NCBI GenBank assembly: GCA_030390025.1
Contig: CM059437.1
Span: 54,126,001-54,190,000, forward strand
Length of the DNA stretch: 64,000 nt
Origin: Squalus acanthias
Taxonomy: Eukaryota
Direction of reading: 5' to 3'
How positions within the stretch are numbered: the first letter of the stretch is position 1; every line of letters begins with the position of its first letter. Below the pieces are notes generated by a model. That model did not search any database. It was not told where the DNA came from and saw only the letters and a list, made by a program, of their open reading frames with translations. Position numbers and translations under genes: made by a program. Below are positions 1 to 62,796 of this stretch, in pieces.

Positions 1-1513
1 AGGTATACTTACCTGAGTGGTGTCCTAAGGAGACGGAGCAGCTGTACCAGGCCCTGCTAAAGAAATGTTTAGAAAATTTTACGAATTTGATTTTGCCAAT
101 ATAGACAAAGTAGTGCTATACAGAATACACCCTGAGAATCCTATGTGCACGGGTAGACAAAGAAGGGGAGCCTGGAATGATGTTTTCACTGCCTAAAGTC
201 CAGGATCCTTTGTAATAAATAGCCTGGATGACATGGAATTACAGACAGAGAAAAATGGTTTAAAAACCCAGTTAAGAAAGATCCTGAAGGATGGGAACAC
301 AGTGGTAGGCTCAGAGCTACATGAGGACCAAGCTATGACTGTTCATTTAAAGGAAATTATTGCAGAATTGGAAAGGCATGCCAAAACAGTAAATGCACTC
401 ATACGGGAGGATAGGAATGCATCGGATCAGGCTGCACAGAATGAGGTGTGTGTGCTGTACGGGGCATGGTTGCTGGGTGAGGGCCGTAGCAACCTGGAGG
501 ATTTAAAGCAAGGTTTAGTCCCCTCCTGGATCAGCAACAAGCACCTCGCAGCCCTCCACCCGTTTAGTAATTCCCTGAGCCCATGCCAATTTCGTCCAGC
601 CTCTGAAGCCTACCCTGTCCCAATAGATTGTGGGCGTTCCAATCACACTATCATGGAGATAGTAGTGAGGATGTAGGGCATGAGTGGGACAGCCCGACCC
701 GTACCAGTATACAGGGTGGAGAATATTGGAATCATTCAAGGAGGTGCACACATCCGTTTCACAGCGGTCCCACCTTATGTCATAAAGTGGGAGCACGCCA
801 TGACAGGTAATGACCTCTCCATGTCCCGGAGCCGGGGTTCACACATAATACTGTGTCCCCAGCACTTGAACGCCTATTCTAAACCACAGTGCGGGTTTAA
901 AGATGCTGGCGCACGACCTATAAACTGTACCATGGAGATAATGGCACATGGCCATGTTTCCCCACAGGTCGCATATATAGGGGGTGGGAGATATTGTGTC
1001 GCCACAGGTGCGACCCACTACCAGCATGGACACTTCTGGTGTCCTGTAAGTGACAGCAGTTTCTGCTTTAAACCCGAGGCAGAGGTTCAAGTGGCCCAGG
1101 AACGGATTGTCCCCATTCCTCAACCCTCCACTGTTCACCTCTCTGTAACAGAAAACATCACCAACCTGCAAAAGTATGTGACTAACATTGCATATAAAAT
1201 TCCCCCTCTACCCGAACATCTTACCATCCTACTTAAAGCTGTAGTGATTTCACAAAAACATTTCTACACCCTGGAAAAGAATACAGTTGAAATGGGGGCA
1301 GAGATTTTGGATATAGAAGTTCCACCCTGGTGGGATATTTTCGAGAATATAGAGGTGCCTTCCTGGATCAGGATGGCTTCCCATCTTTTGGTGGTCTGCC
1401 AGCTCGGGATAGTTCTCTACCTGCTGTGTACAAAGTGCAGGGGAAGGGACGGGGAGCTCCGTTCCAGACACGAAGGGACTTGGGAAGTGCATCAAAATAA
1501 AGGCTATGGCTAG
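1..1513 (+). pseudogene. env: Endogenous retrovirus env, 5'-truncated by the window edge; class I fusion protein with a long post-cleavage subunit (loki/spuma-like)
   Basis: One frame runs from 62 to 1513 (ORFs 233-676 and 680-1513 share it), broken by stops at 194-196 and 674-676 and a frameshift near 60. It has furin site RQRR|G (155-166), heptad-like helices, a Cys-rich region, a Trp-rich membrane-proximal PPWWDIF and a TM helix (HLLVVCQLGIVLYLLC). A PPT and LTR follow. Confidence 0.8.
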
Positions 1514-1807
1514 GGATGGAACGAACCTTGGTTATGTTAAAAAAAAAATTGTGTGTGTGTTGTGTCATTTTTATGATGTGTATGATGTGTTTTTCCAAGC
1601 TGTGCAGGGGTGTCGGACCCGCTCCGTGCTTGGATGTGAAATAAAGGTTGATTCTTACCTGTATGTACCTGAAACACCACATTTAATCGGGGAATGTATG
1701 TTTGGGTTATTAGTTTAGGTAATACAGGGGAAGGTTGGTTTTCGGGGATCAGAAATTTTGCTCACCTGTTAATGATACTAATTCAGTTTTAGTATCAAAG
1801 GGGGGAG

Positions 1808-3138
1808 TGTAGGCTTCGCAAAATACCTCAGAAACTCGAACAGAACACTAAAGCAAGTGATTTTTGTATCTTTCATACAAACGTGGGATGATGGGACCTA
1901 AGTGAAGTGATTTGAGGTAAAAACCTCAGTTTTGGACATTTTAAAGATCAGGGAATAAAAAACCCTGAGGAAAATTATCTTTGAATCTTACTGTTGGTAA
2001 AGACACCTATCACAGACACAGACAGGCTACGGATGGGCGTGGCCAGGCAGTGGACAGCTTTGGGTATTGGGTCCCAATCAAGCTGTCTGGGAATTTGTTT
2101 ACACTGCATTCCTACCAAGGAGGAAGAGACAAACCCAAAGCCTCACACACACATCGAAAAATGAATAATCCAAGACCTCTTTTGAAATTCCCAGGCCCAA
2201 ACAGGATAGCAGAAGCCTGAAATCATTAAAACATTTAGTACCCCGATTAGTTCATCAAAAACCAATCAACCAGGTATCCACAGGGACAGTTGTACAAGTC
2301 CGCCAAAAAACCTAGGACAATAGGGACAATATTTGGCGCGCAGATAAAGGCCCTGCCCAAATGGAAATATCGGAAGCCATCAGGACATGTTTAACACCAA
2401 GTTAAAGCCATCGAAACTAACAAGCCCGCCAAAACTAAGACAATGGAATAAACAGGGCTCATTTGAAATCTAAAGGAAACCGATTTAGTAAGGGGTTTTG
2501 GGCACGAAAAGGAAAAAGGGGCTGAACAGTATAATTGGGGGCCTAAACCCCCAAGACTCTCTCTCTCTCAGGACTCTCTGACAACGCTCTCAACGCTCGC
2601 ACAGCTCTCTCTCAGCTCTGCTCCAGCAGGACACCACAAGCCACGAGCAGGAGGAGGGAAGAAGGCCAACAACTTCACAAGCAGACCAACACGCAAGGAG
2701 AAACCAGAGCGACTGCCTCAGTGGCCATCGGACACCTTGCGGCAACAAGGGCCGTATGAAACCTTTTACTCAAAAGACTCTAAACCCTAATTCTCAACTG
2801 TCAAGGATTCGTTTGGCGAGCATTATCCCTGATCTGCTGAAACCAAAACCTAGCGAGATAGTGGGATTTTTGGGAGGGATAATGTTTTTTTGTATATTGT
2901 ATTTCTCCCTCACCTGTACCGTGTGTTCCCCAACCTGTGTTTAAGTATTAAGTGTGTTTTAAGTTTGTGACCTTTTTCTTTTAATAAAGTCAAAATTCTA
3001 TCATCAGAACCTGTTGTCTACTGCATCTTTGTTCACAACCCCTAAGTAAGTCCAAAGTCTAGAACCAGGGGCGTGGGAGCGATTCGAACCGCTCACTGAG
3101 TCAGAGGTGAAGGCTGACCCCAAATACCAACCCCTACA
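1808..3138 (+). mobile_element. ERV 3' LTR (1331 bp)
   Basis: Preceded by PPT AAAGGGGGGAG (1797-1807). Termini TGTAGG...CCTACA form a perfect 6-bp inverted repeat. AATAAA at 2983-2988. CR1 RT sequence begins immediately after 3138. Confidence 0.85.
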
Positions 3139-4640
3139 GCCACTAAGCCAATTTTGGATCCAATGTGCCAAATTGCCCTGGATCCCATGGGCTCTTACAT
3201 TCTTGACCAATCTCCCATGTGGGACTTTGTCAAAAGCCTTACTGAAGTCCATGTAGACTACATCAACTGCGCTACCCTCATGCACACACCTAGTCACCCC
3301 CCGAAAAATTCAATCAAATTGGTCAGTTATGATCTCCCCTGAAAAAGCCACGCTGACTATCCCTGATTAATCCCTGCCTCTCCAAGTGGAGACTAATTCT
3401 GTCCCTCAGAATTTTTTCCAATAATTTCCCTACCACTGATGTTAGGCTCACTGGCCTGTAATTCCCTGGTTTATCCCTGCTACCCTTCTTGAATAATGGT
3501 ATTCCGTTAGCTGTTCTCCAGTACTCTGGCTCCTCCTGAGGAAGGAGCAATCGATAGCTCCGAAAGCTTGTGATTTCAAATAAAACTGTTGGACTATAAC
3601 CTGGTGTTGTGCGACCTCTCAATTTTGTCCTCCCCTGTGGCCAGAGAGGTTCTGAAAATTTGTGTCAGAATCCCTGCAATCTTCTCCCTTGCCTCACAGA
3701 GCAACCTGGTTTACATCCCGTCAGGGCCTGGGGATTTAACCACTTTTAGGCAGCTAAAACCGCTAGTACCTCCTCCCTCTCAATCATAATTTGTTCAAGT
3801 ATATCACAATCTCCCTGCCTGATTTCTATGCCTACATCGTCCTTCTCCATAATGAACACAGATGCAAAATATTCATTTAAAACCTCACCTACATCTTTCA
3901 GCTCCACACACAGATTGCCACTTTGGTCCCTAATGGGCCCTACTCTTTCCCTGGTTATCCTTTTGCCCTTAATATACTTATAAAACACCTTGGAATTTTC
4001 CTTTATTTTGCCCACCAGTGTTTTTTCATGCCCCCTCTTCGCTCTCCTAATTTCTTTTTTAATACCCCCCTGCACTTTTTATACTCCTCTAGGGCTTCCA
4101 CTGTTTTTAGTCCTTTGTATCTGCCAAAAGCCTCCCTTTTTTCCGAATCCATTGTTGTATATCCCTTGACATCCAGGGTTCCCTGGGTTTGTTGGTTCCA
4201 TCTTGACCTTTACGGGAACATGTTGGCGTTGTACTCTCTCTATTTCCTTTCTGAAAGACTCCCACTGCTCTGATGTGGATTTTCCTACAAGTAGCTGATA
4301 CCAGTCCACTTTGGCCAGATCCTGCCTTATCATAATAAAAGCGGCCTTCCCCCAATTTGGAACCTTTATTTCCAGTCCATATTTGTCCTTTTCCACGACT
4401 ACCTTCAATCTCACCGAATTGTGATCACTGTCACCAAAATGTTCTCCTGCTGACACTTCTACCACTTGCCCGGCTACATTCCCTAGAATTAGGTACAGTA
4501 CTGCCCCCTCTCTTGTAGGACTGTCTGCATGCTGGTTCAAAAAGCTCTCCTGGATGCAATTAAAGAATTCCGCTACCTCTAAGCCATTCACACTCTAACT
4601 ATCCCAGTTAATATTGGGGAAGTTAAAATCCCCTACAATT
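3139..4640 (-). mobile_element. CR1-type LINE ORF2 fragment (endonuclease end to RT start), interrupted by the ERV
   Basis: Motifs GDSDHNSV, PGNYRPVSLTSVVGKLLE and VDVVYMDFSKAFDKVPH; frameshifted. Confidence 0.9.
3536..3627 (+). mobile_element. Short Penelope-type pLTR fragment with hammerhead core, inserted in CR1
   Basis: CTGAGGA-a-GGAGC(loop)GCTCC-GAAAGCTT core; TCCTCC is duplicated at both flanks; the insert interrupts the CR1 reading frame. Confidence 0.6.
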
Positions 4641-6720: not shown

Positions 6721-8349
6721 CTGCCTGCTGTCCTGTAAGGTAGTCAACAACATAATCAATGACCGGCCCATACTACTGCCCGGCTTATAGTGCAGAGATG
6801 CTAGAAAATAGAAAAATTGCTGGCAGTGATTACCTGTATAGCTCTTGAGAGATCAGTGTGAGTAGATGAGCGTGGCTGTAGGGCTATCGATATAATTGCC
6901 CTGTTGCCTCTTTGGTAAACTACACTGTGCTTGTGCACAACTCCTCAGAAAGTATGGAGTAATATCTGGTAGGCCGAATGCTTCTTAAATCCTGCCTGAG
7001 GTTTCTTTGCTCCATCCTGCACTGAATCTCCTCCTCCACGATAATTGCATACAACGGTAAGTCAATAGGAAATATCATCCTCAGGATCGTGAGACTGAAA
7101 GGATTCCCTGACCTTAGTTCATACAGAATGACACCGACAGAAGTTACAATTGATGATGATTAGTTAAAGAGGAGAGTTTACCTTCTGCACTTTACACCAG
7201 TTCTCATTCTGTATACGCAGGAAACAACGAGGGAGATGTCCAATGGAAACCTGAACCGTAAATAGCGGAATGGACTCCTCCTGTGTTGTATGATTCTATG
7301 ATGCTACAATTCAATGATTCTATAGATCAAAGAATCAGGGATCCTTAATATCAACACTGTGTATACAATAATCGAAAATGTTCCTTGCTCAGTCTAATTT
7401 TTATTGTCATTTGATCTCGGGTTATGGGCAACAATGGCATGGCCTCAGTTATTGTCCATCAGTAGGTGCCCTGAGAAATTGGTGAAGGGCGTTCTCCTTG
7501 AAGATCTGCAATCCCAGGTGATTGAACCAGCGACCGTGAAAGAGCAATGATATATATCCAAGTTGGGCTGTGTATGGCTTGGAGGGGAACCTGGAGCTGA
7601 TGGTGTTCGCAAAAAAATGTTGTCCTGATTCTTCTAGGGGTTAATGTTGCAATGAGGACCAGTGCTATCAAATCAACCGTGGTAATTTGCTGCAGTGCAT
7701 TCTGCAGATCCTACATATTGCTGTTAAAGTATGCCAATGATGGGCTAAACCTCGGGTTCATTGGCAGGTGCTCAGATCAAGCGAAGTGTTCTCTTTTGAT
7801 TGGTGGTGAAATACTTGAGTGTTGTTGAGGCTGCACGCCTCCAGACGTGTGGTTACAGCTACTGGAGGCATTGTGTTTGAATTCCTCTGTGGTAGGAATT
7901 CCTATGGTTACTGTGTAATGCAATACCGTAAATGTTTGTGAGATTTCCCCTTGCTTGACTCGTGAACGTAGAAGCTTGGGGAAAGTTCTTCTCGTAGGTT
8001 TACGAGATCACCAGCAATACTGAATGAGAGAATCTTCATCAACGCATTTACAGTGTCTCACAAATCGTGATTAATCAATTCCTAATACGCCTGTCAATAA
8101 GTTGACTGAGGAACACCCGGTGTTAACACAAAGCTAAACTCAGAGCCACCAATGTCACATTGCACAGCTTTAGAATGAACTAAAACACTCGTCACTCTCA
8201 CATAAACAGTATTGATCACTTTCACTATTGTTGCTTTACACTCATAACTTTAGGGACCCAGTCTTTCTCACTTTATTAAATCTCACGATTTCGTGTAACC
8301 CCTTGTTATGACTCGTTATTTTCTCCGCTTTACTTGTCAAATATTTAAA

Positions 8350-10279: not shown

Positions 10280-13200
10280 ATGGTGGACACGAACGCAGTT
10301 TCCGTGAAACTGCCGGAGTTTTGGGAAAACCAGCCCGAAGCCTGGTTTCTCCAAGCTGAATCTTGCTTCCGGCTTCGAAATATCACCACAGATGGGATTA
10401 AGTACGACTATCTCGTCACATCACTCAGTAGCGCCGCAGTTTCCAAGGTTTGGACAACGCTGCAGAACCCACCAGAGGAAGGCAAGTACGCACATCTCAG
10501 AACAGCGCTCCTTAAAAAATTTACGGTCTCGGCATATCAGCGAAACTGCCACCTCCTCGACCTTCCAGGCCTCGGTGATGCCTCACCGTCAGACCTCCTC
10601 TCCCACATGCTCTCCCTCACCGATGAGAGCCCACCCGGATCCCTCTTCCACATGCTGTTCATCCGCCAGCTCCCTCTCAGCATCTGCCCAGCGATCATGG
10701 CGTCCGGCCTCACGAACCTGGAAGCCCTGGCCGATGAGGCCGACAAGCTGCTGTCCGCTCACTCCAGCCGCGACGTCACTCCGGACCTGGCAGCCAATGC
10801 CTGGGCGCGCCCCTCACCATCCAGCACACGGCCACAAGGGCCTGTCACCAGGCCCACGGGGCTTTCACGCCCCACTAACCCGGGCCACTGTTACTACCAT
10901 GCACGGTTCGGCGCCAGGGCACAATGGTGCACACCTCCCTGCTCTTTCAAGTCCGCCCCCGTTCCAGCCCCCGCGATGGCCGTGGGCCACGCGGGCTCCC
11001 TACTGTTCATCACGGATGACAAAACTGGCTGCCGGTTCCTGTGCGACACTGGGACTCAGCACAGCATCATCCCGGCCTCCTCCCTCAACATCCAAAAGGG
11101 CGAACGAGGACCAGCGCTGGCTGCTGCTAACGGCTCGGAAATCCGGACGTATGGCACCCGGACAGTCACCCTCGACCTCGCTGGTCACCGCTACCGATGG
11201 GAGTTCATCACTGCCACGGTGCCCTCCCCCCTCATCGGCGCAGATTTCCTGTGTGCCCACGGCTTACTGGTAGACATCCCTCGTCACCGCCTCGTGGACA
11301 TGAACACCATGTCACCCATCCTGGGCGCCATGGCCCCCCGTCAACCTGCCGACATGGCATCACAGTGCCACGCCCGGGCCACAGATGACTACTCGGCACT
11401 CCTGGCTGAATTCCCGGCCCTTACCAATCCGACCTTCTCCGCGGAGGCCGCCAAACACGGGGTGGAACACTTCATCCCCACCACAGGCCCCCCAGTGTAC
11501 ACCCACGCCCGCAGGCTGGACCCGGCCAAACTGGAGATCGCGCGGACCGAGTTTGCCACCATGGAACAGCTCGGCATCATCCGCCACTCCAACAGTCCCT
11601 GGGCCTCCCCACTCCACATCACCCCCAAACCAGGCTGTGGTTGGCGCCCCTGCGGGGATTACCGCCGCCTCAATGACGCCACCACCCCTAATCGGTACCC
11701 CGTGCCGCACATTCAGGACTTCTCAGCTAGACTGGCCGGCCGCTCTGTCTTTTCCAAGGTCGACCTGGTGCGCGGCTACCACTAAGTCCCCGTCCACCAC
11801 GCGGCCGTCCCCAAGACGGCCGTAATCACCCCCTTTGGCCTGTTTGAGTTCCTGCGGATGCCCTTCGGCCTCAAAAACGCGGCCCAGGCATTCCAACGGC
11901 TCATGGACTCGGTCCTTCGGGACCTGAAGTTCCTGTTTGTCTACCTGGACGACATCCTGGTAGCCAGTTCCTCCAAGCAGGAACACCTCGAACACCTTCG
12001 CATCCTGTTCGGGCGCCTCAGCGACCACGGGCTCAACCTCAGCCCAGTCAAATGCCAGTTCGGCCGGGACAAGATCGACTTCCTCGGCCACCACATCACC
12101 CATGCTGGGGCCATTCCCCTGCCCACCAAGGTGCAGGCCGTCCAACAATTTCCCCGCCCCACCACCATCAAAGGCCTCCAGGAGTTCCTCGGGATGGTGA
12201 ATTTCTATAACCGATTCATCCCCAAAGCGGCGTCCCTCATGAGGCCCCTGTATGAAGCCCTCCGGGGCAGGAGCGGCAAGATGGCGGTCGAATGGACGGC
12301 AGATGCCTCCGCCGCCTTCAATTCCTCCAAGACCGCGCTCGCCAACACCACCCTGCTCGCACACCCATGGCCCAATGCCAGGGCAGTGCTCACCACGGTC
12401 GCCTCCGACCACATGGTCGGCGCCATGTATGAGCAGTGGGTCGACGGCGCCTGGCAACCACGTGCCTTGTTCAACCGCCAACTACGCCCCCCGGAGGTCA
12501 AGTACAGCACCTTCGACAGCGAGCTCCTCGCGCTGTTCCTGGCGGTCCGCCATTTCCGGTTTTTGCTTGAGGGCCACCCCTTCACTGCGTTTGTCGACCA
12601 CAAGCCCCTGACATTCACAATGGCAAAGACAACCGTCCCCTTGTCCGCCAGGCAGCAGCGCCAGCTTGCGGCAGTGTCCAAGTTCACCACGGACATCCAA
12701 CACATCTCCGGCCGAGACAATGTGGTAGCCGACTGCCTCTCCCACCCCGCCATCCATGCCGCACACCTAGCAGTCGACTACGCTCAACTCGCAGCAGACC
12801 AGATCACCGACCCTGATCTGCTCTCCGCACCCACCAACCTACCAGGGCTACGCCTGGCCGACGTCACCTGTGGCCCGACCGCAGTCACGGTCAAGTGCGA
12901 CATATCCCTATGTCAACCTCGGCCCGTTGTCCCAGCGTCCTGGCGCCGCCGGGTATTCGACATTCTCCACAACCTCTCCCACCCCGGCGCCCGCGCATCC
13001 ATCAAATTGGTAGCCAACCGCTTTGTCTGGCGCGGCCTTCGCAAGGATATGCGTACTTGGGCCAACTCCTGCCTAGCCTGCCAACGGGCCAAGGTACAGC
13101 AACACACGAAAGCACCCCTCGAGGAGTTTACCGTCCCCTCGCGGAGATTCGACCACATCCACGTGGACATCATCGGGCCCCTGCCGCCGTCGCAAGGCCA

Positions 13201-14092
13201 CACGCACTTGCTGACCATCGTTGACCGCACCACACGCTGGCCTGAGGCAATTCCACTGACCTCTACCACCACCGCCGACATCGCCAGAGCCTTCGTCAGC
13301 ACCTGGGTCGCTCAGTTCGGCGTTTCCTCTGACATGACGTCGGACAGAGGTCCACAATTTACCTCTGAACTCTGGACCGCCGTCGCACACAATCTCGGGG
13401 TGACCATTCACCGCACCACAGCGTGCCACCCCCAAGCCAACGGACTGTGTGAGCGGTTCCACAGATCCTTGAAGGCATCTCTTCGAGCCAGCCTCCAAGA
13501 CGGCGCCTTGACCGACCGACTTCCGTGGGTCCTCCTCGGCCTGCGCACCGCGGTTAAAGAAGACCTCCATGCATCGGCAGCAGAGCTCGTGTACGGTCAG
13601 CCACTGCGCGTACCCGGCGACTTCCTGCCCACCGCCACGACACCCTGGTCAGCCGACCAGCAACGCCATGACTTCGCCTCACTGGCGCTGCAGTTCGCCC
13701 CAGTGCCCTTTGCCCGACACGGCGAATCCACTTCACACGTCCCACTAATCCTGCACCAGGGACGGTTTGTTTTTGTCCAGCACGACGCCCACCACGGACC
13801 CCTTCAACCCCCGTACGATGGGCCCTACAAGGTGCTACAGGCTGGGGACAAATTTTTCACCCTGCAAGTGCGAGACAGGACCGAAAAAGTGTCGGTGGAC
13901 CGGCTCAAGCCAGCACACTCGGAGCCCGGGGAGCAGGTCCCTGTAGCTCGTCCACCTCCACGCGGCCGACCTGCCCTCAAGCCAGTTCACCCGGCTGCTC
14001 CACGCCTGGCCGTTCCACGTCCACCGGCGTCCTACAAGAGCTGCTCCGGCCGGCCCATCAGACCGCCGCACCGTCTCGTCCACACCTCCTAA
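10280..14092 (+). pseudogene. gag-pol: Gypsy gag-pol (gag-PR-RT-RH-IN) with a single premature stop at 11783-11785
   Basis: ORFs 10280-11785 and 11858-14092 are in the same frame. Motifs: KLPEFW, CYYHARFG..A..C.PPC, DTG protease, YLDD, HHCC and DDE integrase, GPY. Confidence 0.93.
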
Positions 14093-14476: not shown

Positions 14477-14689
14477 ACACTGTGGTATTTGTACCGTTAC
14501 ACTGAAACTTTGATCAGCTCAGGATGAGCACACTGTAAAATACAGACAGCGGGATGCAGTGGACAAACTGCACATCTGTTGTGATTGGACATGTTCCACT
14601 TAAAATCAAACATGTAATAGCTGATTACGGAATTTAATTTAAAGAACCTTTACTAATGGTATAATTGATCAATACATAAGATTCTTGAA

Positions 14690-29800: not shown

Positions 29801-32800
29801 TGACGTAATAAAGACTCACTACGCACTTGAACATAAAGCAAGGCTTTAATCAACTTGTAACAAAACATGGAGGTCCAGTTAGCAGTCACTAGCTTCCTGT
29901 TTCCAGATTGTCTCTGCCCAAGGTGGGCCCATGCCTGAGTATTTATACTCCCTGGACGGCGCCCCAGCTGGCCGCCCAGTAGTACTTCCTGAGTTGTTAC
30001 TTGCGATTTATGACATTCTTCCTCCCTAAAAGGTTTGGAAGTCCAGTCTTCCTTTAACAGACTAGGCGGACCAGAAATAGCCGCAGACGTTTAGCTCTCT
30101 GCTTGTGACTGGAAGGCACGTCTCCCCGGACCGTGTCCTGGTCCCTGGGTCGCTTGGCCCGTACCGGTAAGTCAGTAGAGTCCGCGTCATCTTGATCATC
30201 CTGTGGAGGACTGGGAATATCATGACTCTGGGTGCGGGTCCCCACAGGTGCTGAGCTGGCCTCATCCCGGGTCGTGGCTGGACATTGTCCGGCGTCCTGG
30301 TTTCGGGTGGCCATCCTACGGGGAGCATCCAGCTCCCTGAGTTGATCCGGTAGCGTTGCCGGCAGATCCCCCGATGTCCCAGGTGCGGCGTCATTTTCAT
30401 AGGGGTGCGGAGTGTTGATATCATTGTCGGGGGATCCTTCATCATTCGGGCCCGTGTGACCGGTTGGGCAGGGAGCCAGATCTTGGAGCGAGACGGTGGT
30501 CTCCCGGCCATCAGGGTACCGTACGTGCGCATACGTGGGGTTTACCTCCGTTAACTCCACCTCGTCAACGAGAGGGTCGTTTTTGGCAGACTGGACGAAC
30601 CTCCGGAGTAGTACCGGGCCTGGAGCCACCAACCATGATGGTAGAGACGTCCCATGTGTAGAGCGACGCCGGAATTTGAAGAATCGCTCATGAGGCGTGA
30701 CATTAGTAGATGTGGAGAGAAGAGACCTGATAGAGTGTAACGCGTCGGGGAGCACCGTTTCCCACTGCTGGTCCGGCAGGTTGCGTGACCTTAGTGCCAG
30801 ACGGACAGTGTTCCAGATGATGGCATTGTATCGTTCAACCTGTCCGTTACCGATTGGGTGATATGGTGTCGTCCTACTTGAGGCGATTCCCCGTTGGGAG
30901 AGATAACTTTTAAGTTCACTCGACATAAAGGAGGGACCCCGATCAGTGTGGATAAAATTGGCTGTCCCGCAAAGGGAAAAGACCTGATCGAGGCATTTAA
31001 TTACCGTAGAGGTAAGCATATTAGGGCAGGGGAAGGCGAAGGGAAAGCGTGAATACTCGTCCACCATCGTAAGTAGGTAGGTGTTCCTTGTCGACGAAGG
31101 CAATGGCCCTTTAAAGTCTATGCTGAGCCTCTGCATAGGCTGCATTGCATGTATGAGTAAGCCATCTGATGGGCGAAAGAATTGTGGTTTCAATTCTGCA
31201 CAAATCCTACAGGAGGAGCATGTTTTCTTTACATCCTCGGTTGAAAATGGTAGACTTTTGGAGCGCACAAAGTGCAACATGCGGGTCACACCAGGATGGC
31301 ATAAGTCCATATGCAAATCCGCCAGAGTCGACGTTGACATTGAGGAGCAAAATGCCCGTGTGAAGGTATCTGGGGCCACGTTCTGTTTGCCGGGTCGGTA
31401 ACAGATAGTATATCCAAAGGCAGCCAGCTCCATCCTCCAGAGTTGAATTTTATTATTTTTGATTTTCGTGCGCCTCCGGTTATCCAACATGAAGGCCACA
31501 GAGCGCTGGTCAGTTATAAGCGTAAAATGACGCCGAGCAAGAAAATGACCCCATTGGCGTACAGCCTCGATGATGGCCGTAGCCTCCTTCTCGACGGGGG
31601 GGGGGGGGGGGGGGGGGGGTAATGGAGCTCGCTACCCTCCAAGGTTCTGGATAGGAATGCCACGGGTCGGCCACCTTGATTCAAGGTAGCGGAGATCGCC
31701 ACCTCCGATGCATCGCATTCGACCACAAAAGGAAGATTTTCGTCAATGGAGCGAAGCGTGGCTTTCTCCAGCTGTCGTTTGAGGAGGTTGAAGGCAGAAA
31801 TAGCCGTAGCTTCCAATGGAAAAGACTTCGCATGGAGCAGGGGCTGTATTTTATCGGAGAAGTGTGGTATCCATTTTGCGTAATAAGCAAACATGCCAAG
31901 TGCCCGACGAAGAGAGCCGAGGTTCGTCGGGGGAGGGAGCTCCTGAAGTGGACGAAGTCGCTCTGGGTCTGGTTTAATAACACCGTTGCCCACCCAGTAG
32001 CCAAGAATGTTCACCGATGGCACTAACTTCACCGATTTGGATTCGTTTAACGTTAAGTGGCGACGGCGGAGTACGTCAAAAAATCTTTGAAGATTGGCGT
32101 CATGCTCCTTTTGATCATGGCCGGCAATAGTGATATTGTCTAAATACGGAAAGGTATCCGTCAAGTTCTCTTGCCGGACTAGGCCATCCATAATACCGTC
32201 GACTAAAAGGCGAGAGATTTCCGCCTCAATAAACGCTCGATCATCTTGGCTAAAGCGCCGCGATTTGGTGGCTATGGGTTTACAGCGGGGGGGAAGATTG
32301 GCAAACAGGGAGGGTTCACCGAGTAAGGCCGCCGAGAGTGCACAAAATGGCACCTTAGAAATGGTAAGCTCCGGCCTTGACCCTCCAAACTCAAAAGTGA
32401 TCTTCTTGTGCTGCTTCTGGAAGCCCTGTCCCAGAAGCACATCGCTGCATAAGTTTGCGAGTACTCCGAGCCGGGTGGAGAGATACGTGCGGCCGTTGAG
32501 GATGAGGTTGACAAGACAGAAGCCAGAAGAATTGATGGTCAGAGTCGTCAGAGCCATTGCAATCTCCCTGTCCGAGGGATAAATGTGCAGTTTTAACCTG
32601 TTGACAGCCCACTTACTAATGAAGCTGTCAGAGCTGCAGGAGTCGATTAGCGCGCTTAGAGTGTGCCCATTTACTGAAACCTTCGTGGCTGCATGGGACA
32701 AACTTTGGGGAAAAACAGCCGTGATGGGAGGAGGGGCAATTTTCCCTTCGGCAACTGTAGCCTTAACAGTAGTTCTTGGGGGAGGAGCAGCTCCATAGAT

Positions 32801-52930: not shown

Positions 52931-53008
52931 GAACATCTCCTTTAAGAACTGGAAGGCACCAGTCTGCCTGACTACTAGGGGGAGCGCTAACAGGGCACTA
53001 GGAACTTA

Positions 53009-53901
53009 TGGGTAAAAATTCAGTTGGTTGCGCCTCCCGTTAGCGCCTTAAGAGGGCGCTAATGGGGCGCAAAGCCGCTAACGCCCGGGCGCAGCGATGT
53101 TTGCGCTGCTAGGGAACTTAACTTGACATTGTGCGGCGGCGCTAAACTTTACCGCTGCGATCACCTGCGCGCGCAGATTGTGATGTCATTCCATGGTGCA
53201 ACGCCCTTGTGGTGCCCTGGAGCGGAAATTGAGTGGCGCCCCCTGCCTTACCGCCTGGCGCATCCAACGACCAGAAGACTGGAACGCTATCAATCGCTGT
53301 GGGGCTGGGGGGGGGGGTGGGGGGCACTATTTAAAGGGGGCCTCTTCCTGTCTTTTATTGTTGGTGGCATTTTTGAACTACGCATTCTGAGAGAGAGAGG
53401 GAGAGACTTCTGGAGAGATTCAACGTTGTGTGAAGGAGTTTTGGGTACTGAGCAGGTTCATTTTGATTTGCCATTCCTTGTATCGATTTAGCAGAGACTG
53501 TGGGAGCTGCACTCTGAGCTCTTTGCCTGGTACTCTCCATTGTTCTTTCCAGCACATTTGATGTGCAAGTCTCTCCAGGCCGAGATTCAAGGCTGCAATG
53601 AACAGGATGTGGATGGAAAGCAAGATTAACCATCCCCTTTAAGAACTGGCCCATGCCATTGTGTGTGTGTTCCATTGCTGACTGACATTACATGAGCTTC
53701 GCCAGCGCTCTGAGTTAGCGCCTCACTCCTTGGCCTTTGCGCCTTAAGACAGGTGTGCAGCGCCTGATTTAGCGCTCCACTCACCTCCCGGGGCGGTAAA
53801 AGTGAAGTTTCCAGTCAGTGCCGATAATTAGCGCCAGGCGCTAATATTTGCGTCCAGACGATATTTGCGCCCCAAATGGGGCGCGACCTAATTTTTCCCC
53901 C
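53009..53901 (+). mobile_element. MITE family A (893 bp non-autonomous Harbinger), nested in an older relative spanning ~52977-54665
   Basis: TIR-like ends GGGTAAAAATT / AATTTTTCCCCC; TTA TSD (53006-53008, 53902-53904). Confidence 0.88.
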
Positions 53902-55260
53902 TTAGTGCGCAAAGTTTTAGCGCCACTCGTGAAATTGACCAATCATTTTGTGGCGACACTAAACACTACCGCCACGATATCTTCCACCCACAGATCGTGA
54001 TGTCAGTTGAGCATGCAATTTCCCGGTAGCGCCGCAGACCAGATATTGAGTTGCGCCCCCTGCCTTAGCGCCTGCGGCTAGGAACAACAGGTAAAGGGGA
54101 ACGTTTTCATGTCAGGAAGGGGCTGGGGGAGCGCTATTTAAAGGCGGGCACTTCCTGCCTTTTCTTGTCGGCAAAATTTTTGGTACACGCAGGTTCAGAG
54201 GGAGAGAGATGTCTGGAAGATTTTACGCTGTCCTAAGGAGTTTTGGCCCTCAGCACCACTTTTGCGGTTCCTAAGCTCACAGCTCTTTCCCTGGACCTAT
54301 CCATTAGTGCTTCCAACACAATTGCTTTAGAGGGCTCTCCAGGCCTAGATTCAAGGCTGCAATGAGCAGGGTGTGGATGACCAGCAAGATGGGCCCGCCC
54401 CTTTAAGAACTGGACGGCACCAGTCTGTCTGTCTTCCATGGCAACTGACATCACCTGAGCTTCAGTAGCATTCTAAGGTGGCACCTCGCTCCCCGACGTT
54501 TGCGCCTTAAGAGAGGTGTGTAGAGCCTGATTTAGCGCTCAAATCACCTCCAGAGGCGATAGAGGGAAATTTTGCAGTTGGAAGCAATAATTAGCACTGG
54601 CTGCTAAACTTTGCACCCGGCCGGTATTCGCGCCCCCAAAATGGTCGATACCGAATATTACCCCCAGGTCTTTTTGAATGGTGAAGTTGTAAAAGGTACA
54701 GCAGGCTGTAAATTTTTCGTGAAGTACAATCTGGATCATATTGCAAATCTGGCAAGGTAGTGAAAGTATGCCTTTTATGTCCTTTTTGTCCTCCAAACGA
54801 CTAACCTAGTAGAGGCAGTTGCCTACTAGCTGTGCTCCTGTGCTGTCTTCGGGCGCCCTTACTGGGAGTAGAATCTATAGGAGCAGGGGATAGGCTTTGT
54901 CACCAGAAAGCCATTCATGGACGCGATTTCCGCCGAACCGCCTGAACAGAGGTTGAGGAGGCGAATCATGCAGTAGGAAGGTATTATGACAACTTCCACC
55001 ATATTGGGTGTTGAGATTAAGGATTCTCTGCATGTTGTCGAACACCATCTGCACGTTCTGGGATATGAAGCGCCTCGTGTTGATGAAGTTGAAGAGTTTT
55101 CTGTGGTAGTTTGCGAAGCAACATCCGTACCATCGATTGCAGCCTTTGTGGAAACCACAACCCCGGAAAATTAGATGGCCCTTACTTCTTTCTGCCTTGC
55201 TGTGATTTCAAAGGTGATGAGTTTGCCTACTCTCCTGTAAAGGACATCCACAACATAAAG

Positions 55261-58289: not shown

Positions 58290-58951
58290 TAGATAAGGTG
58301 GTTAGAAAGGAATATGGGATACTTGCCTTCATTAGCCGAGGCATAGAATATAAGAGAAGGGAGGTTATGATGGAGCTGTACAAAACGCTAGTTAGGCCAC
58401 AGCTGGAATACTGTGTGCAGTTCTGGTCGCCACACTATAGGAAGGATGTGATTGCATTGGAGAGGGTGCAGAGGAGATTCACCAGGATGTTACCTGGGCT
58501 GGAGCGCTTCAGCTAGGAAGAGAGACTGGACAGGCTGGGGTTGTTTTCCTTAGAGCAGAGAAGGCTGAGGGGGGACCTGATTGAGGTGTACACAATTATG
58601 AGGGGCATAGATAGGGTAGATAGAAAGGAACTTTTCCCCTTAGTAGAGGGGGTCAATAGCCAGGGGGTATAGTTTCAAGATAAGGGGCAGGAGGTTTAGA
58701 GGGGATTTGAGGAAAAACTTTTTCACCCAGAGGGTGGTTGGAATCTGGGACTCACTGCCTGAAAGGGTGGTAGAGGCAGGAACCCTCACAACATTCAAGA
58801 AGCATTTAGATGAGCACTTGAAACGCCATAGCATACAAGGCTACGGACAAAGTGCTCGAAAATGGGGTTAGAATAGACAGGGCTTGATGGCCGGCGCGGA
58901 CACGATGGGCCGAAGGGCCTCTTTCTGTGCTGTATAACTCTATGACTCTAT
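58290..58951 (+). mobile_element. Young 5'-truncated CR1 LINE 3' end
   Basis: LYKTLVRPQLEYCVQFWSPHYRKD; (ACTCTATG)n tail split by the MITE. Confidence 0.9.
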
Positions 58952-59844
58952 GGGGTAGAAATTAGGTCGCGCCCCATTTGGGGCGCAAATATCGTCCGGA
59001 CGCAAATATTAGCGCCTGGCGCTAATTATCGGCACTGACGGGAAACTTCACTTTTAACGCCCCGGGAGGTGAGTGGAGCGCTAAAGCAGGCGCTGCACAC
59101 CTCTCTTAAGGCGCAAAGGCCGAGCAGTGAGGCGCTAACTCGGAGCGCTGGCGAACCTCATGTAATGTCAGTCAGCAATGGAACACACACACAATGGCAC
59201 GGGCCAGTTCTTAAAGGGGATGGTTAATCTTGCTTTCCATCCACATCCTGTTCATTGCTGCCTTGAATCTCGGCCTGGAGAGACTTGCACATCAAATGTG
59301 CTGGAAAGAACAATGGAGAGCACCAGGCAAAGAGCTCAGAGTGCAGCTCCCACGGTCTCTGCTAAATCGATACAAGGAATGGCAAATCAAAATGAACCTG
59401 CAAAGTGCTGCTCAGTACCCAAAACTCCTTCACACAACGTTGAATCTCTCCAGAAGTCTCTCCCTCTCTCTCTCAGAATGCGTAGTTCAAAAATGCCACC
59501 AACAATAAAAGACAGGAAGAGGCCCCCTTTAAATAGCGCCCCCCCCAGCCCCACAGCGATTGATAGCGTTCCAGTCTTCTGGTCGTTGGAAGCGCCAGGC
59601 GGTAAGGCAGGGGGCGCCACTCAATTTCCGCTACGGGGCGCCCCAAGGGCGTTGCACCATGGAATGACGTCACAATCTGCGCGCGCAGGTGGTCGCAGCG
59701 GTAAGTTTTAGCGCCGCCGCACAATCTCAAGTTAAGTTCTCGAGCGGCGCAAACATCGCTGCGCCCGGGCGTTAGCGGCTTTGCGCCCCATTAGCGCCCT
59801 CTTAAGGCGCTAACGGGTGGCGCAACCAAGTGAATTTTTACCCC
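58952..59844 (-). mobile_element. MITE family A copy (893 bp), reverse complement of 53009-53901
   Basis: GGGGTAGAAATT...AATTTTTACCCC; 3-bp TSD TAT inside the CR1 tail. Confidence 0.9.
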
Positions 59845-62796
59845 TATGACTCTATGTTCAACACAGATGGAGCTAGAGTCACTATTGCTGGTTTACTCTC
59901 ACTATTTTAGGGACCCAATCTTGCTGACGTCATTAAATCCCACGAGTACTTGTAACCCCGTTTTGTGATTCGTTATTTTCTGCACTTTACTTGTCAAATA
60001 TGTAAATGACTGAGAAAATCGATCGATAGCTGTTTAGGCACAGACATTCTTACAGGCGAGGATGATGAGCCTGCTGTGGTTTGGACCATCTGTATCTGAC
60101 AGGGTTATTCTGTTCTTTTTTGTTCTCGTTAACCTAAACATAGATTTATATATTCCATTCAGACTGTTCACTTTGTGTTCACATTATGTGGTATCCCGGG
60201 CGGGGAGAAGACACTACGTGGCTTTCTGTGGCTCTGCTGGGAGGCCAGCTTGAGGAGATACTGAGCTGGGCCGTTGTACGCTTTGATAGTCAGGCTGCTG
60301 CATGTTACCTTTCAGTATTTTACACGAGATGTACTGCTTGGTTGCAGTGTCTCATCAGCGAACCACCCTCCTCAAGGAAGCACAATGCGTCTGTATCTGC
60401 CCAATATTTAAGTGCAAATAATGTGCCCCGGAATGAGCATACAACTATTTTGCTCTGTTTCGCTTTACCCTGCTCCATTTCTTTGTTCTTTGGAGAAACT
60501 TTCGCAATTTAGTTAAATTTGGTCAGCAGGGACGCTATTGGTCAGAGAAGGGACATCCCTTTCAAAATTACTCCAACTGCAGTGATTCGAAACAAAATTG
60601 TTCGCTGTCTTACTGCACATGAGGAGCGCAGCTAATTGAATGAAAATGAAACTTAAGGCAGGCATTATCGGTTTATCTTAGTAGGCGGCGGAATAACTGT
60701 GTGCAAACACGTTTTGTGACTGAAAAAGCTCTTAAACTTCGCGTTCTCGGCGCATTTGAAGTCAGATCAATATTAATTATTGGCACTGAATACAACGTGA
60801 TGTTATCGTGTTATTTAAACAGTTTCTCACTACATATAATTGCAGGGAATCTACATCATAGAAACAAGGTAATTAAGTCCTTCCAACTTGTTCCGGCTTT
60901 CGGTTAGATCATGGTTGATCTGCACCTGACGTCCATTTACTCGCCTTTGTTCCGTATCTCTTAATAATCTTACCGAACAAAATAAAATATGGAGCACAGT
61001 CTTGAAAATGTCAATTGACACATTATCCACAGCCTTTGGGAGCGGCTGGGGTGCGGGGGTGCTCGTTCCAGATTTAAACTACCGTGTGTGTGTGAAAGGG
61101 TGCTTCCTGAGTTCATTCCTAAATGGCTCAGCTCCAATGTTAAGATTGTGGCCTCTTTTTCTGGATTTCCCCACTAGTGGAAATAGTTTATCTGTATCTG
61201 TCCTATCGAATTTCTTAATAACGTTAAATACCTCGGTGAGATCACTCCTGAGCCGTTAAAAATCAAGGAAATACAAACCACTTTTCTGTAATCTGTCCCC
61301 ATAAGTTACCCCTTTAAGCCCGCGCATCATTCTACACTGTATCCCTTCAAAGACCAATATATCTTTCCTGAGAGTCGGTGCCCTAAACTGAATGCAGTAC
61401 TCCAGATGGGGTCTGACCAAGGCTGTGTACAACGGAAACAATACTTTTCACTTTTTAATTCCAATCCCCTTGGGATAAGGTTCAACATTCCATTAGCCTC
61501 TTTGATCACTTTTTAGTGATTTGTTTACATGGACAACTAAATCCATTTGCTCATCCACAGCTCCTAGTCTCTCAGCATTAAGCAAATATTCTGATTTATC
61601 ATTCTCAGGCCCAATGTGGATGATTTCATGCTTCCCCACATTGAGCTACATCTGCCAAAATTTTGCCCATTCACTTAGTCTATCTAAGTAACTTGCATCG
61701 CCGATCAACAAAACTTAATGTGCCTCCTAACTTAGTGTAATCAGCAAATTTGTACATATAATTCTCTGGGCCTTCATCCGAGTCATTAATATATACGGCG
61801 AAAAGCTATGATCACTGACCTGATTCCTAGCGAACACCACTTATCACATCCTTTATACATACTCACTGTCTCCTACCTCCCAAGCAATTACCAACTCATA
61901 ACTTCAAATAATTTATACATTTGATCTGTAGGTAGTTATCTTATATTTATGCCTCCTTGTTCTGGACTCACCCACAGTGGAAACAGTTTTTCCACGTCCC
62001 CGTACCGCAAACCTTCATAATTTTAAACCCTGTATCAAATCTCATATGACTTCTCTTTTCCAGAGAAAAGAGCCTACCTATTTCTTTTTCCTGATAGTTG
62101 CATTCTCCCATTTCTAGTAACAAGCTTGTAAATATTTTCTGCACTTTCTCCAGTCCTCCGATATCATTTTTGTATGGAAGTTGAATTGAGCACAGTTCTA
62201 TATAAATCTAACACTAACCACCTGGTTTTGTATTCTATTATTCTAGAAATGAAGTAACACTTTGTTTACAATCTTTATGGCCTTAACAACTTGTGTTGCT
62301 ACTTTTAGCGATTGAAGAATTTTTACTCCTAAATCAGCCGGAACAACGAAGACGATGTACTAAGGGGTTACGGTACCGAGTGTGTGATTAGTGTGAAGCT
62401 CAATTTAAAACACGCGACTCTTATCTGAGCTGGTTTCAGTCAAGGGCTTGACCGAATCTGTAGTTACGATGAATAAAAGCTCAGAATTTTGTCACATTTA
62501 GAAAGTTGCTATTAATTGCTTCAGGGGTAACGGACAGGAAAGAATAACAGCACCTCAGATAAAGGAAGAGTCATTTTATTACACTGCGGTATCTGTAACG
62601 TTACACTGAAACTTTGATCAGTTCAGGGTGAGCACACTTTAAAATACAGACAGCGGAATGTAGCGGACAAACTGCACATCTGTTGTGGTTTGAAATGTTC
62701 CACTTAAACTCAAACATGTAATAGCTGATTACGGATTTTATTTTTAAAGAAACTTTACTAATGGTATAATAGATCAATACATAAACGATTATTGAA

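Follow-up and report, generated by a model that had tools for sequence, protein, structure and literature searches.

A dead provirus in a shark LINE, with an envelope predicted to adopt the F fold and a lineage likely related to snakehead retrovirus rather than to lokiretroviruses

Introduction

Envelope (Env) proteins of the paramyxovirus F type are already known in retroviruses, namely in lokiretroviruses and foamy viruses, and endogenous retroviruses (ERVs) of snakehead and epsilon type are already known in sharks. Lokiretroviruses are defined by their reverse transcriptase (RT) and have been found in lampreys, at least 120 teleosts, the coelacanth, amphibians and reptiles, with none in the three chondrichthyan genomes screened; their Env is matched by PF00523 at 2.2e-7 (Wang and Han, PMC7947760). 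Foamy virus Env has the F fold (PMC11468914), and epsilonretrovirus Env is neither gamma- nor beta-type (10.1101/2021.11.23.469661). ERVs similar to snakehead retrovirus (SnRV) and to epsilonretroviruses are documented in the elephant shark (PMC4422223), the clade Huo, which holds kin of SnRV, is the widest-ranging ERV clade (PMC6001957), and class III RTs make up the majority in cartilaginous fish (PMC11089739). Here we describe an env-like gene and the long terminal repeat (LTR) behind it in a stretch of 64,000 nucleotides from Squalus acanthias (GCA_030390025.1, contig CM059437.1, positions 54,126,001 to 54,190,000 of the forward strand), referred to below as the window.

We read this locus as a dead provirus in a long interspersed nuclear element (LINE), with an Env for which the F fold is predicted and a lineage likely related to SnRV rather than to lokiretroviruses; we give this reading a probability of about 0.58. 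The locus shows a broken env, a polypurine tract (PPT) and an LTR with its junction to the flank, and many similar copies of the family exist. In structure models of relatives, the part ahead of the furin site is predicted to form an F2-like strand and helix and the part behind it an F1-like subunit, and the only pol linked to the Env family points to SnRV by its RNase H.

Results

The window opens inside the env-like gene of the provirus, its edge cutting off the 5' part. The features of the locus are as follows.

1 to 154, plus strand: end of the pre-cleavage, predicted F2-like part of env, with a frame break near 55-65 and, in the model of relative P0012, a helix after the F2-like strand
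155 to 166, plus strand: furin-type cleavage site RQRR, conserved in relatives P0003, P0006 and P0013
167 to 1513, plus strand: post-cleavage, predicted F1-like subunit of 448 codons, assigned from sequence features and the folds of relatives
1514 to 1796, plus strand: T/G-rich non-coding spacer, free of accessory genes in a search for open reading frames (ORFs)
1797 to 1807, plus strand: PPT, an A-run followed by a G-run
1808 to 3138, plus strand: 3' LTR of 1331 nt, delimited by its inverted ends and by the junction in contigs
3139 to 4600, minus strand: degraded LINE ORF2 flank, the host site of the provirus insertion, assigned from sequence and contig junctions

The reading of env starts in frame 3 (nt 3-60), breaks near nt 55-65 and continues in frame 2 to the natural stop TAG at 1511-1513; two premature stops, at 194-196 and 674-676, interrupt it. 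The frame 3 peptide can be assigned to the same env because it matches the corresponding segment in four of seven relatives (76-78% identity over 13-18 residues, E 6e-11 to 8e-6). The 448 codons between the RQRR|G site and the TAG agree with the first-pass annotation, a reading of the letters alone, which had given the subunit about 450 residues without CX6CC or an immunosuppressive domain (ISD); motif inspection of the post-cleavage subunit found neither CX6CC nor an ISD-like motif. The F1-like subunit comprises, in order, a weakly hydrophobic fusion peptide, a long heptad helix, Cys-rich beta domains, a second heptad helix, a single predicted membrane helix (about 1373-1429) and a short tail. 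The mean hydropathy of the fusion peptide is 0.4-0.8 in full-length relatives, against 1.4 in a gamma Env. The traits of a gamma-type Env (ISD, CX6CC, a transmembrane subunit of about 200 residues) are thus not those of the window env, and a gamma-type transmembrane subunit was rejected on the absence of both motifs and an hhalign value of 2.4% to gamma Env.

The PPT begins 283 nt and the LTR 294 nt past the env stop, so that the earlier figure of about 295 bp from env to the PPT fits the distance to the LTR instead. The first-pass remark that foamy-type accessory ORFs would have no room there held, as the longest ATG-initiated ORF on the plus strand of 1514-3138, through the LTR end, has 62 aa. 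The LTR (1331 nt, the length given before) runs from TG to CA and has inverted ends of 6 nt; a TATA-like motif lies at 2530, AATAAA at 2983, and a second LTR copy was not found within the window. Its 3' boundary is shown independently because 49, 36 and 20 contigs of three DNA sequencing runs carry the flank with other (LINE) sequence, and not the LTR, before 3139. By its motifs we take the flanking LINE to be of CR1 type. LTR and spacer gave no notable nucleotide match to the reference records described below (best E 0.047, over 25 nt). Insertion of a non-retroviral paramyxovirus was rejected, since behind the gene come a PPT and an LTR, and copies of the family extend from env through the LTR.

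The provirus is a decayed copy of a high-copy family. The stretch was matched by 6040, 9063, 1428 and 337 contig pieces from four sequencing runs, mostly 90-99% alike and covering 30 of 30 bins; these runs contain at most 0.31 of the sampled words and may derive from related species. The runs listed as containing the sequence included no RNA run. The contig loose ends listed, 999 further ends being outside that list, included no primer-binding site (PBS). The window protein, with X at the stops, had no significant match in Pfam or PDB sequence searches. An indexed protein search with it returned five matches, all sawshark or skate and 58-74% identical, which is consistent with the cartilaginous-fish host named in the first-pass annotation. 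An exhaustive search (E up to 0.001) returned 35 matches: 23 from sharks and skates (Pristiophorus, Rhinoraja, Scyliorhinus, Chiloscyllium, Mustelus, Heterodontus, Heptranchias, Rhincodon), three from frogs (Pelodytes, Xenopus; a profile search added Lithobates), six without an organism name and three that were not looked up. Teleosts, lampreys and the coelacanth were absent from the 26 named relatives. No match to P0003 was found in the viral contigs scanned, a metagenome scan with alignment A4 gave 233 pattern matches with 0 confirmed, and long pol-env fusion proteins (1312-3745 aa) were sought with no result, a weak negative.

Full-length relatives carry 150-230 residues ahead of the F2 strand (five of six matched). 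In these N-terminal heads (P0006, P0012, P0031 and P0041) an Ig-like strand motif was seen in three of six; further hints of an Ig-like head are a V-set match for P0031 (E 0.045) and the annotated name of P0012, in whose model the head has a predicted local distance difference test score (pLDDT) under 50. The shark gene models P0007, P0010 and P0027 join env pieces to host genes (Niban-like, cadherin-related and fbxo15), probably as annotation artefacts or exonised provirus.

The claim that this Env is of the paramyxovirus or pneumovirus F type, and not a gamma- or beta-type orthoretroviral transmembrane protein, is supported because models of two relatives match F proteins. The model of P0003 (64% identical to the window Env, 27-row alignment, pLDDT 62) matched in Foldseek post-fusion human metapneumovirus (hMPV) F at E 2.6e-6, foamy Env 8RM1 at 3.3e-6 and respiratory syncytial virus (RSV) F at 4.9e-6, with low TM-scores of 0.2-0.33. 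The model of P0012, a full-length relative of 25% identity (35 rows, pLDDT mostly 75-93 over residues 380-600), aligned to Nipah F with Z 11.6 over 291 residues (rmsd 5.6); its residues 190-612 correspond to Nipah F 31-444, and thus to F2 and F1 together. Foamy Env was not among the best 50 rows listed for this alignment. Across the F proteins compared (Nipah 8DMJ, human parainfluenza virus 3 1ZTM, hMPV 5L1X, RSV 3RRR) the predicted fold agrees over F2 and F1 with Z 10-11.6 and about 290-350 aligned residues, whereas identity is 9-14%, the shark relatives have the extra N-terminal head and the genome setting is retroviral. The resemblance of the pre-furin segment to F2, proposed before from the letters, is likewise predicted by the P0012 model; a direct sequence match to F was not obtained.

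In a viral structure library the P0012 model matched the Envs of walleye epidermal hyperplasia virus 1 (WEHV1; E 7.7e-10) and walleye dermal sarcoma virus (WDSV; 4.6e-7), feline foamy Env (2.5e-6) and many F proteins. Further matches of this model were a filovirus glycoprotein of fish (E 3.7e-12) and herpesvirus proteins of frog and abalone, a sign that the F-type fold may be widely shared among aquatic viruses. An atlas search with P0003 ranked PF00523 and baculovirus-F clusters first (0.92), and baculovirus or errantivirus F was returned by the fold searches too. A wide VIA structure search with the first structure model was filled by coiled coils, its sole long match being foamy Env (Z 6.4, 234 aligned). 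It had been proposed that a match to F proteins rather than to foamy gp130 would decide the origin of this Env. Such a comparison cannot separate the two, since the F fold is found in foamy Env as well; the near-equal E values for foamy Env and hMPV F in the P0003 search illustrate this.

For comparison with retroviral Envs, 42 contigs were fetched by RT motif and the first 35 used; the references comprised 16 foamy Envs (one of them Pfam-checked), 11 gamma-type Envs, delta-type records and the records L029 and L032. We take L029 to be WDSV and L032 to be SnRV from their length and layout, an assignment that a literature search did not confirm. With the family hidden Markov model, hmmsearch scored the L029 Env at 26.9 bits, the foamy Envs at 4.6-20.9, L032 at 0.2 and gamma Envs at about 0. 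With the family alignment A5, hhalign gave 96.4% for the L029 Env (448 columns), 92.7% for foamy (140), 91.3% for L032 (294) and 2.4% for gamma. Compared pairwise with each other, the walleye, snakehead and foamy Envs stayed under 1% in hhalign. The shark family is therefore a useful bridge, since its profile links these Envs that go undetected pairwise. Identities of the family to the L029, L032 and foamy references are 13-19%. Three family cysteines (one preceding the F2 strand, one within the F2 helix and one at the end of heptad 1) are common to the L029 and L032 Envs and are not aligned in the two foamy Envs compared, whereas a Cys-Gly...Cys loop of the family is common to foamy Env and missing in L029 and L032. 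In an Env tree (13 rows, long branches) L029 and L032 group with the shark family, foamy outside. Judged by these profiles, the window Env belongs to a shark-and-frog family that appears to be distantly homologous to the Envs of the walleye epsilonretrovirus, SnRV and foamy viruses.

The likeness to each of these Envs is partial. SnRV and its ERV kin (clade Huo, PMC6001957; CmiERV lineage I, PMC4422223; L032) share with the shark family a long Cys-rich post-furin subunit, free of CX6CC and ISD, that appears homologous, and L032 likewise has no long ORF after env. Its Env is about 16% identical, longer (1134-aa ORF) and missed by hmmsearch alone, and the linkage to its pol is through a relative only. 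Homology to epsilonretrovirus Env (WDSV, WEHV1; L029) is indicated by both profile and fold, L029 being the best full-length profile match, with common cysteines and a similar PPT; its Env differs in its 15% identity, its 1229 aa and its 757 residues post-furin with several membrane helices, and L029 has two accessory ORFs (315 and 319 aa) after env. Foamy Env gp130 (PDB 8RM1; PMC11468914) is like the shark Env in the F fold, a weakly hydrophobic fusion peptide, the 417-419 aa after cleavage and the Cys loop, and unlike it in an identity of about 15%, a match confined to the Cys-rich domain, a different PPT and accessory genes that are absent here.

Among the 35 matches the whale-shark gene model P0018 is the only one that links a pol to the Env family: RT, RNase H and integrase fragments precede an env piece that is 51% identical over 100 aa. 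For its RNase H the top score was that on L032 (36.8 bits, E 4.5e-6), followed by one of 26.9 bits, and against the 36 ORFs scored L032 reached z 13.7, the next 10.4 and L029 0.8. An RNase H nearest to that of SnRV, as L032 is taken to be, was thus found in this relative. A PDB search with P0018 returned only murine leukemia virus RNase H at E 0.47, and an atlas search with its residues 1-215 was uninformative, all matches being under 0.9.

Discussion

Several points weigh against a relationship to SnRV. The window covers the 3' end of the provirus, its own pol with the RT, the PBS and the 5' LTR lying upstream. The Env family is closer to the epsilon-type L029 than to L032 in hmmsearch (26.9 against 0.2 bits), and L032 was low also with the narrower alignment A2, for which hhalign gave L029 86%, foamy 64%, L032 4% and gamma 1%. 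P0018 is a single degraded, automatically spliced gene model with 51% Env identity, and its RT fragment ties between L029, gamma and L032, scoring lower on foamy. Recombination between env and pol is frequent in anamniote ERVs (10.1101/2021.11.23.469661), and an elephant-shark SnRV-like provirus (CmiERV scaffold 2), judged by eye, has a gamma-type Env (PMC4422223). Both structure models are of relatives of the window protein, with a mean pLDDT of 62 each, and the comparison with lokiretroviruses is qualitative because no loki sequence entered any computation.

The provirus might instead be an epsilon-related ERV of class I, its F-like Env of epsilon type having been either retained or acquired; we consider this unlikely. 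Such an origin would account for L029 as the best Env profile match and WEHV1 Env as the best retroviral fold match, for the A-run and G-run form of the PPT, which resembles that of L029 and of gamma records, and for the equal scores of the P0018 RT on L029, gamma and L032; epsilon-related ERVs are, moreover, known in sharks (PMC4422223). It is harder to reconcile with the P0018 RNase H, for which L032 is the best match and L029 not a significant one, or with the great length of the L029 Env and its two accessory ORFs after env, absent in the window; exogenous epsilonretroviruses carry a cyclin-like orf A and an orf B in that place.

A foamy-like ERV of the shark-plus-frog clade known from CmiFLERV and XtrFLERV is an improbable alternative; marks of the foamy group are an RT in the foamy clade and a tRNA-Lys PBS. 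The shark, skate and frog hosts of the Env family mirror the shark-plus-frog clade, whose elements are known by pol only, their Env not having been found by the authors (PMC5512871). Foamy gp130 is also the top PDB sequence-profile match (E 0.0054) and, as Env, the sole long VIA match, the Cys-Gly...Cys loop is common with foamy Env, and the LTR length lies within the foamy range. Against it, the window PPT differs from the one common to all five foamy records examined (fish foamy-like PPTs being outside that set), no accessory ORF follows env, the Pfam foamy Env model (PF03408) matches no family protein scanned, the similarity is confined to about 140 columns, and scores on every foamy pol are low for both the RT and the RNase H of P0018. 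The missing PF03408 match and accessory genes do not exclude the shark and frog elements, because these are known by pol only.

The first-pass annotation had called the locus a candidate lokiretrovirus that could extend the host range to a shark. We regard this as very improbable: Env architecture, cysteine pattern, the hosts of the relatives and the one linked pol fragment point away from it. Features by which lokiretroviruses are recognised are an RT clade sister to other retroviruses, a CGIN1-like integrase, a tether with group I RNase H and an optional smc gene. In favour of a loki origin, both are vertebrate LTR elements with an F-type class I fusion protein and an RxxR site (PMC7947760), the PF00523 clusters came first in the atlas search, a GP..G-led F2 strand is common to both Envs by eye, and only three chondrichthyan genomes had been screened before. 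An F-type protein with an RxKR-like site is, however, also a trait of foamy, walleye and snakehead Env. We compared by eye 14 of the 23 published loki Env entries, whole or partial and frog ones included. Those Envs have about 550 aa, an F2 strand that comes immediately behind the signal peptide in the 13 with an N-terminus, and no head of 150-230 residues; their fusion peptide is strongly hydrophobic, and several cysteines conserved in the shark family are missing. PF00523, which detects loki Env, matches neither P0002 nor 26 relatives in a Pfam scan. The loki architecture of a signal peptide and F only is not that of the shark family, which in its long N-terminal head and its cysteine skeleton is more like walleye and snakehead Env. 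The loki supplement contained none of five short family motifs, a weak negative. The hosts differ as well, the 23 shark and skate and three frog relatives including no teleost. By eye, the P0018 RT fragment (50 aa) and its motif are unlike loki RT, whereas its RNase H, best on L032 among records that did not include loki, shares two short motifs with loki RNase H.

A Ty3/gypsy element carrying env, or a satellite of some other ERV that is non-autonomous and lacks pol, is barely credible: an F-type env occurs widely among the Ty3/gypsy elements of invertebrates and baculovirus or errantivirus F was returned by our searches, but a retroviral-type RNase H precedes env in P0018, the survey of those invertebrate elements found no homologous ones in vertebrates (10.1101/2023.10.26.564294), and satellite status would leave the origin of env and LTR unchanged.

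Under the preferred reading of an SnRV-related provirus, and following established class I F biology, Env of the parent virus would have been made as a trimeric precursor and cut by furin at RQRR. The N-terminal head, which lies outside the window and may be Ig-like in some relatives, would have bound a receptor. The refolding that followed would have been that of F proteins: the first heptad helix would have thrust the fusion peptide into the target membrane, and the second would have folded back along it to complete a six-helix bundle that fuses the membranes. The virus presumably entered the germ line and multiplied, and the window copy then decayed so that it could not make Env.

The provirus in the window is just one of many copies, and a decayed one. 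An F-type Env is no hallmark of lokiretroviruses, since the family profile also matches walleye-, foamy- and snakehead-type Env, and an F-like Env must not serve to call lokiretroviruses. Whether the loki Env or the 'retroviral' Env is the original one was left open by Wang and Han (PMC7947760). If an F-type Env sits in foamy, loki, snakehead- and epsilon-type lineages, the simplest explanation would be an F-type Env in their common ancestor that was later replaced in the gamma and beta lineages. A bolder proposal, which we hold to be rather doubtful, is that an undescribed shark, skate and frog Env lineage, with a receptor-binding head on an F core, bridges the walleye, snakehead, foamy and loki Envs, the F fold being the ancestral retroviral envelope and the gamma and beta transmembrane type a later one; its boldest version would place a basal RT, loki-like or unplaced, in cartilaginous fish. 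A literature search gave no account of the shark Env family, of walleye or snakehead Env as F-like, or of lokiretroviruses in Chondrichthyes, in a body of papers that included PMC12583693, PMC11521997, PMC10435555, PMC10699275, 10.1101/2021.11.05.467493 and 10.1101/2023.10.26.564294; PMC9972966, on a cartilaginous-fish foamy ERV, and Calcraft (2024) may bear on novelty.

Other Observations in the Window

Further pol regions lie at 10,943-13,950 (plus strand) and about 30,400-32,150 (minus strand), 23-30% identical to retroviral pols and unlinked to the LTR studied here; the RT motifs of the first are of Ty3/gypsy type. Between about 5,100 and 63,900, many repeat families recur at a spacing of some 22-28 kb with 80-96% identity (for example at 14,638, 38,031 and 62,745, or at 7,557, 35,135 and 57,456), which suggests an old tandem duplication with a unit of about 23-25 kb. 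Two inverted arms at 53,007-53,905 and 58,948-59,846, about 900 nt long, 95-97% complementary and about 5 kb apart, have the appearance either of an inverted duplication or of the long terminal inverted repeats of a DNA transposon.

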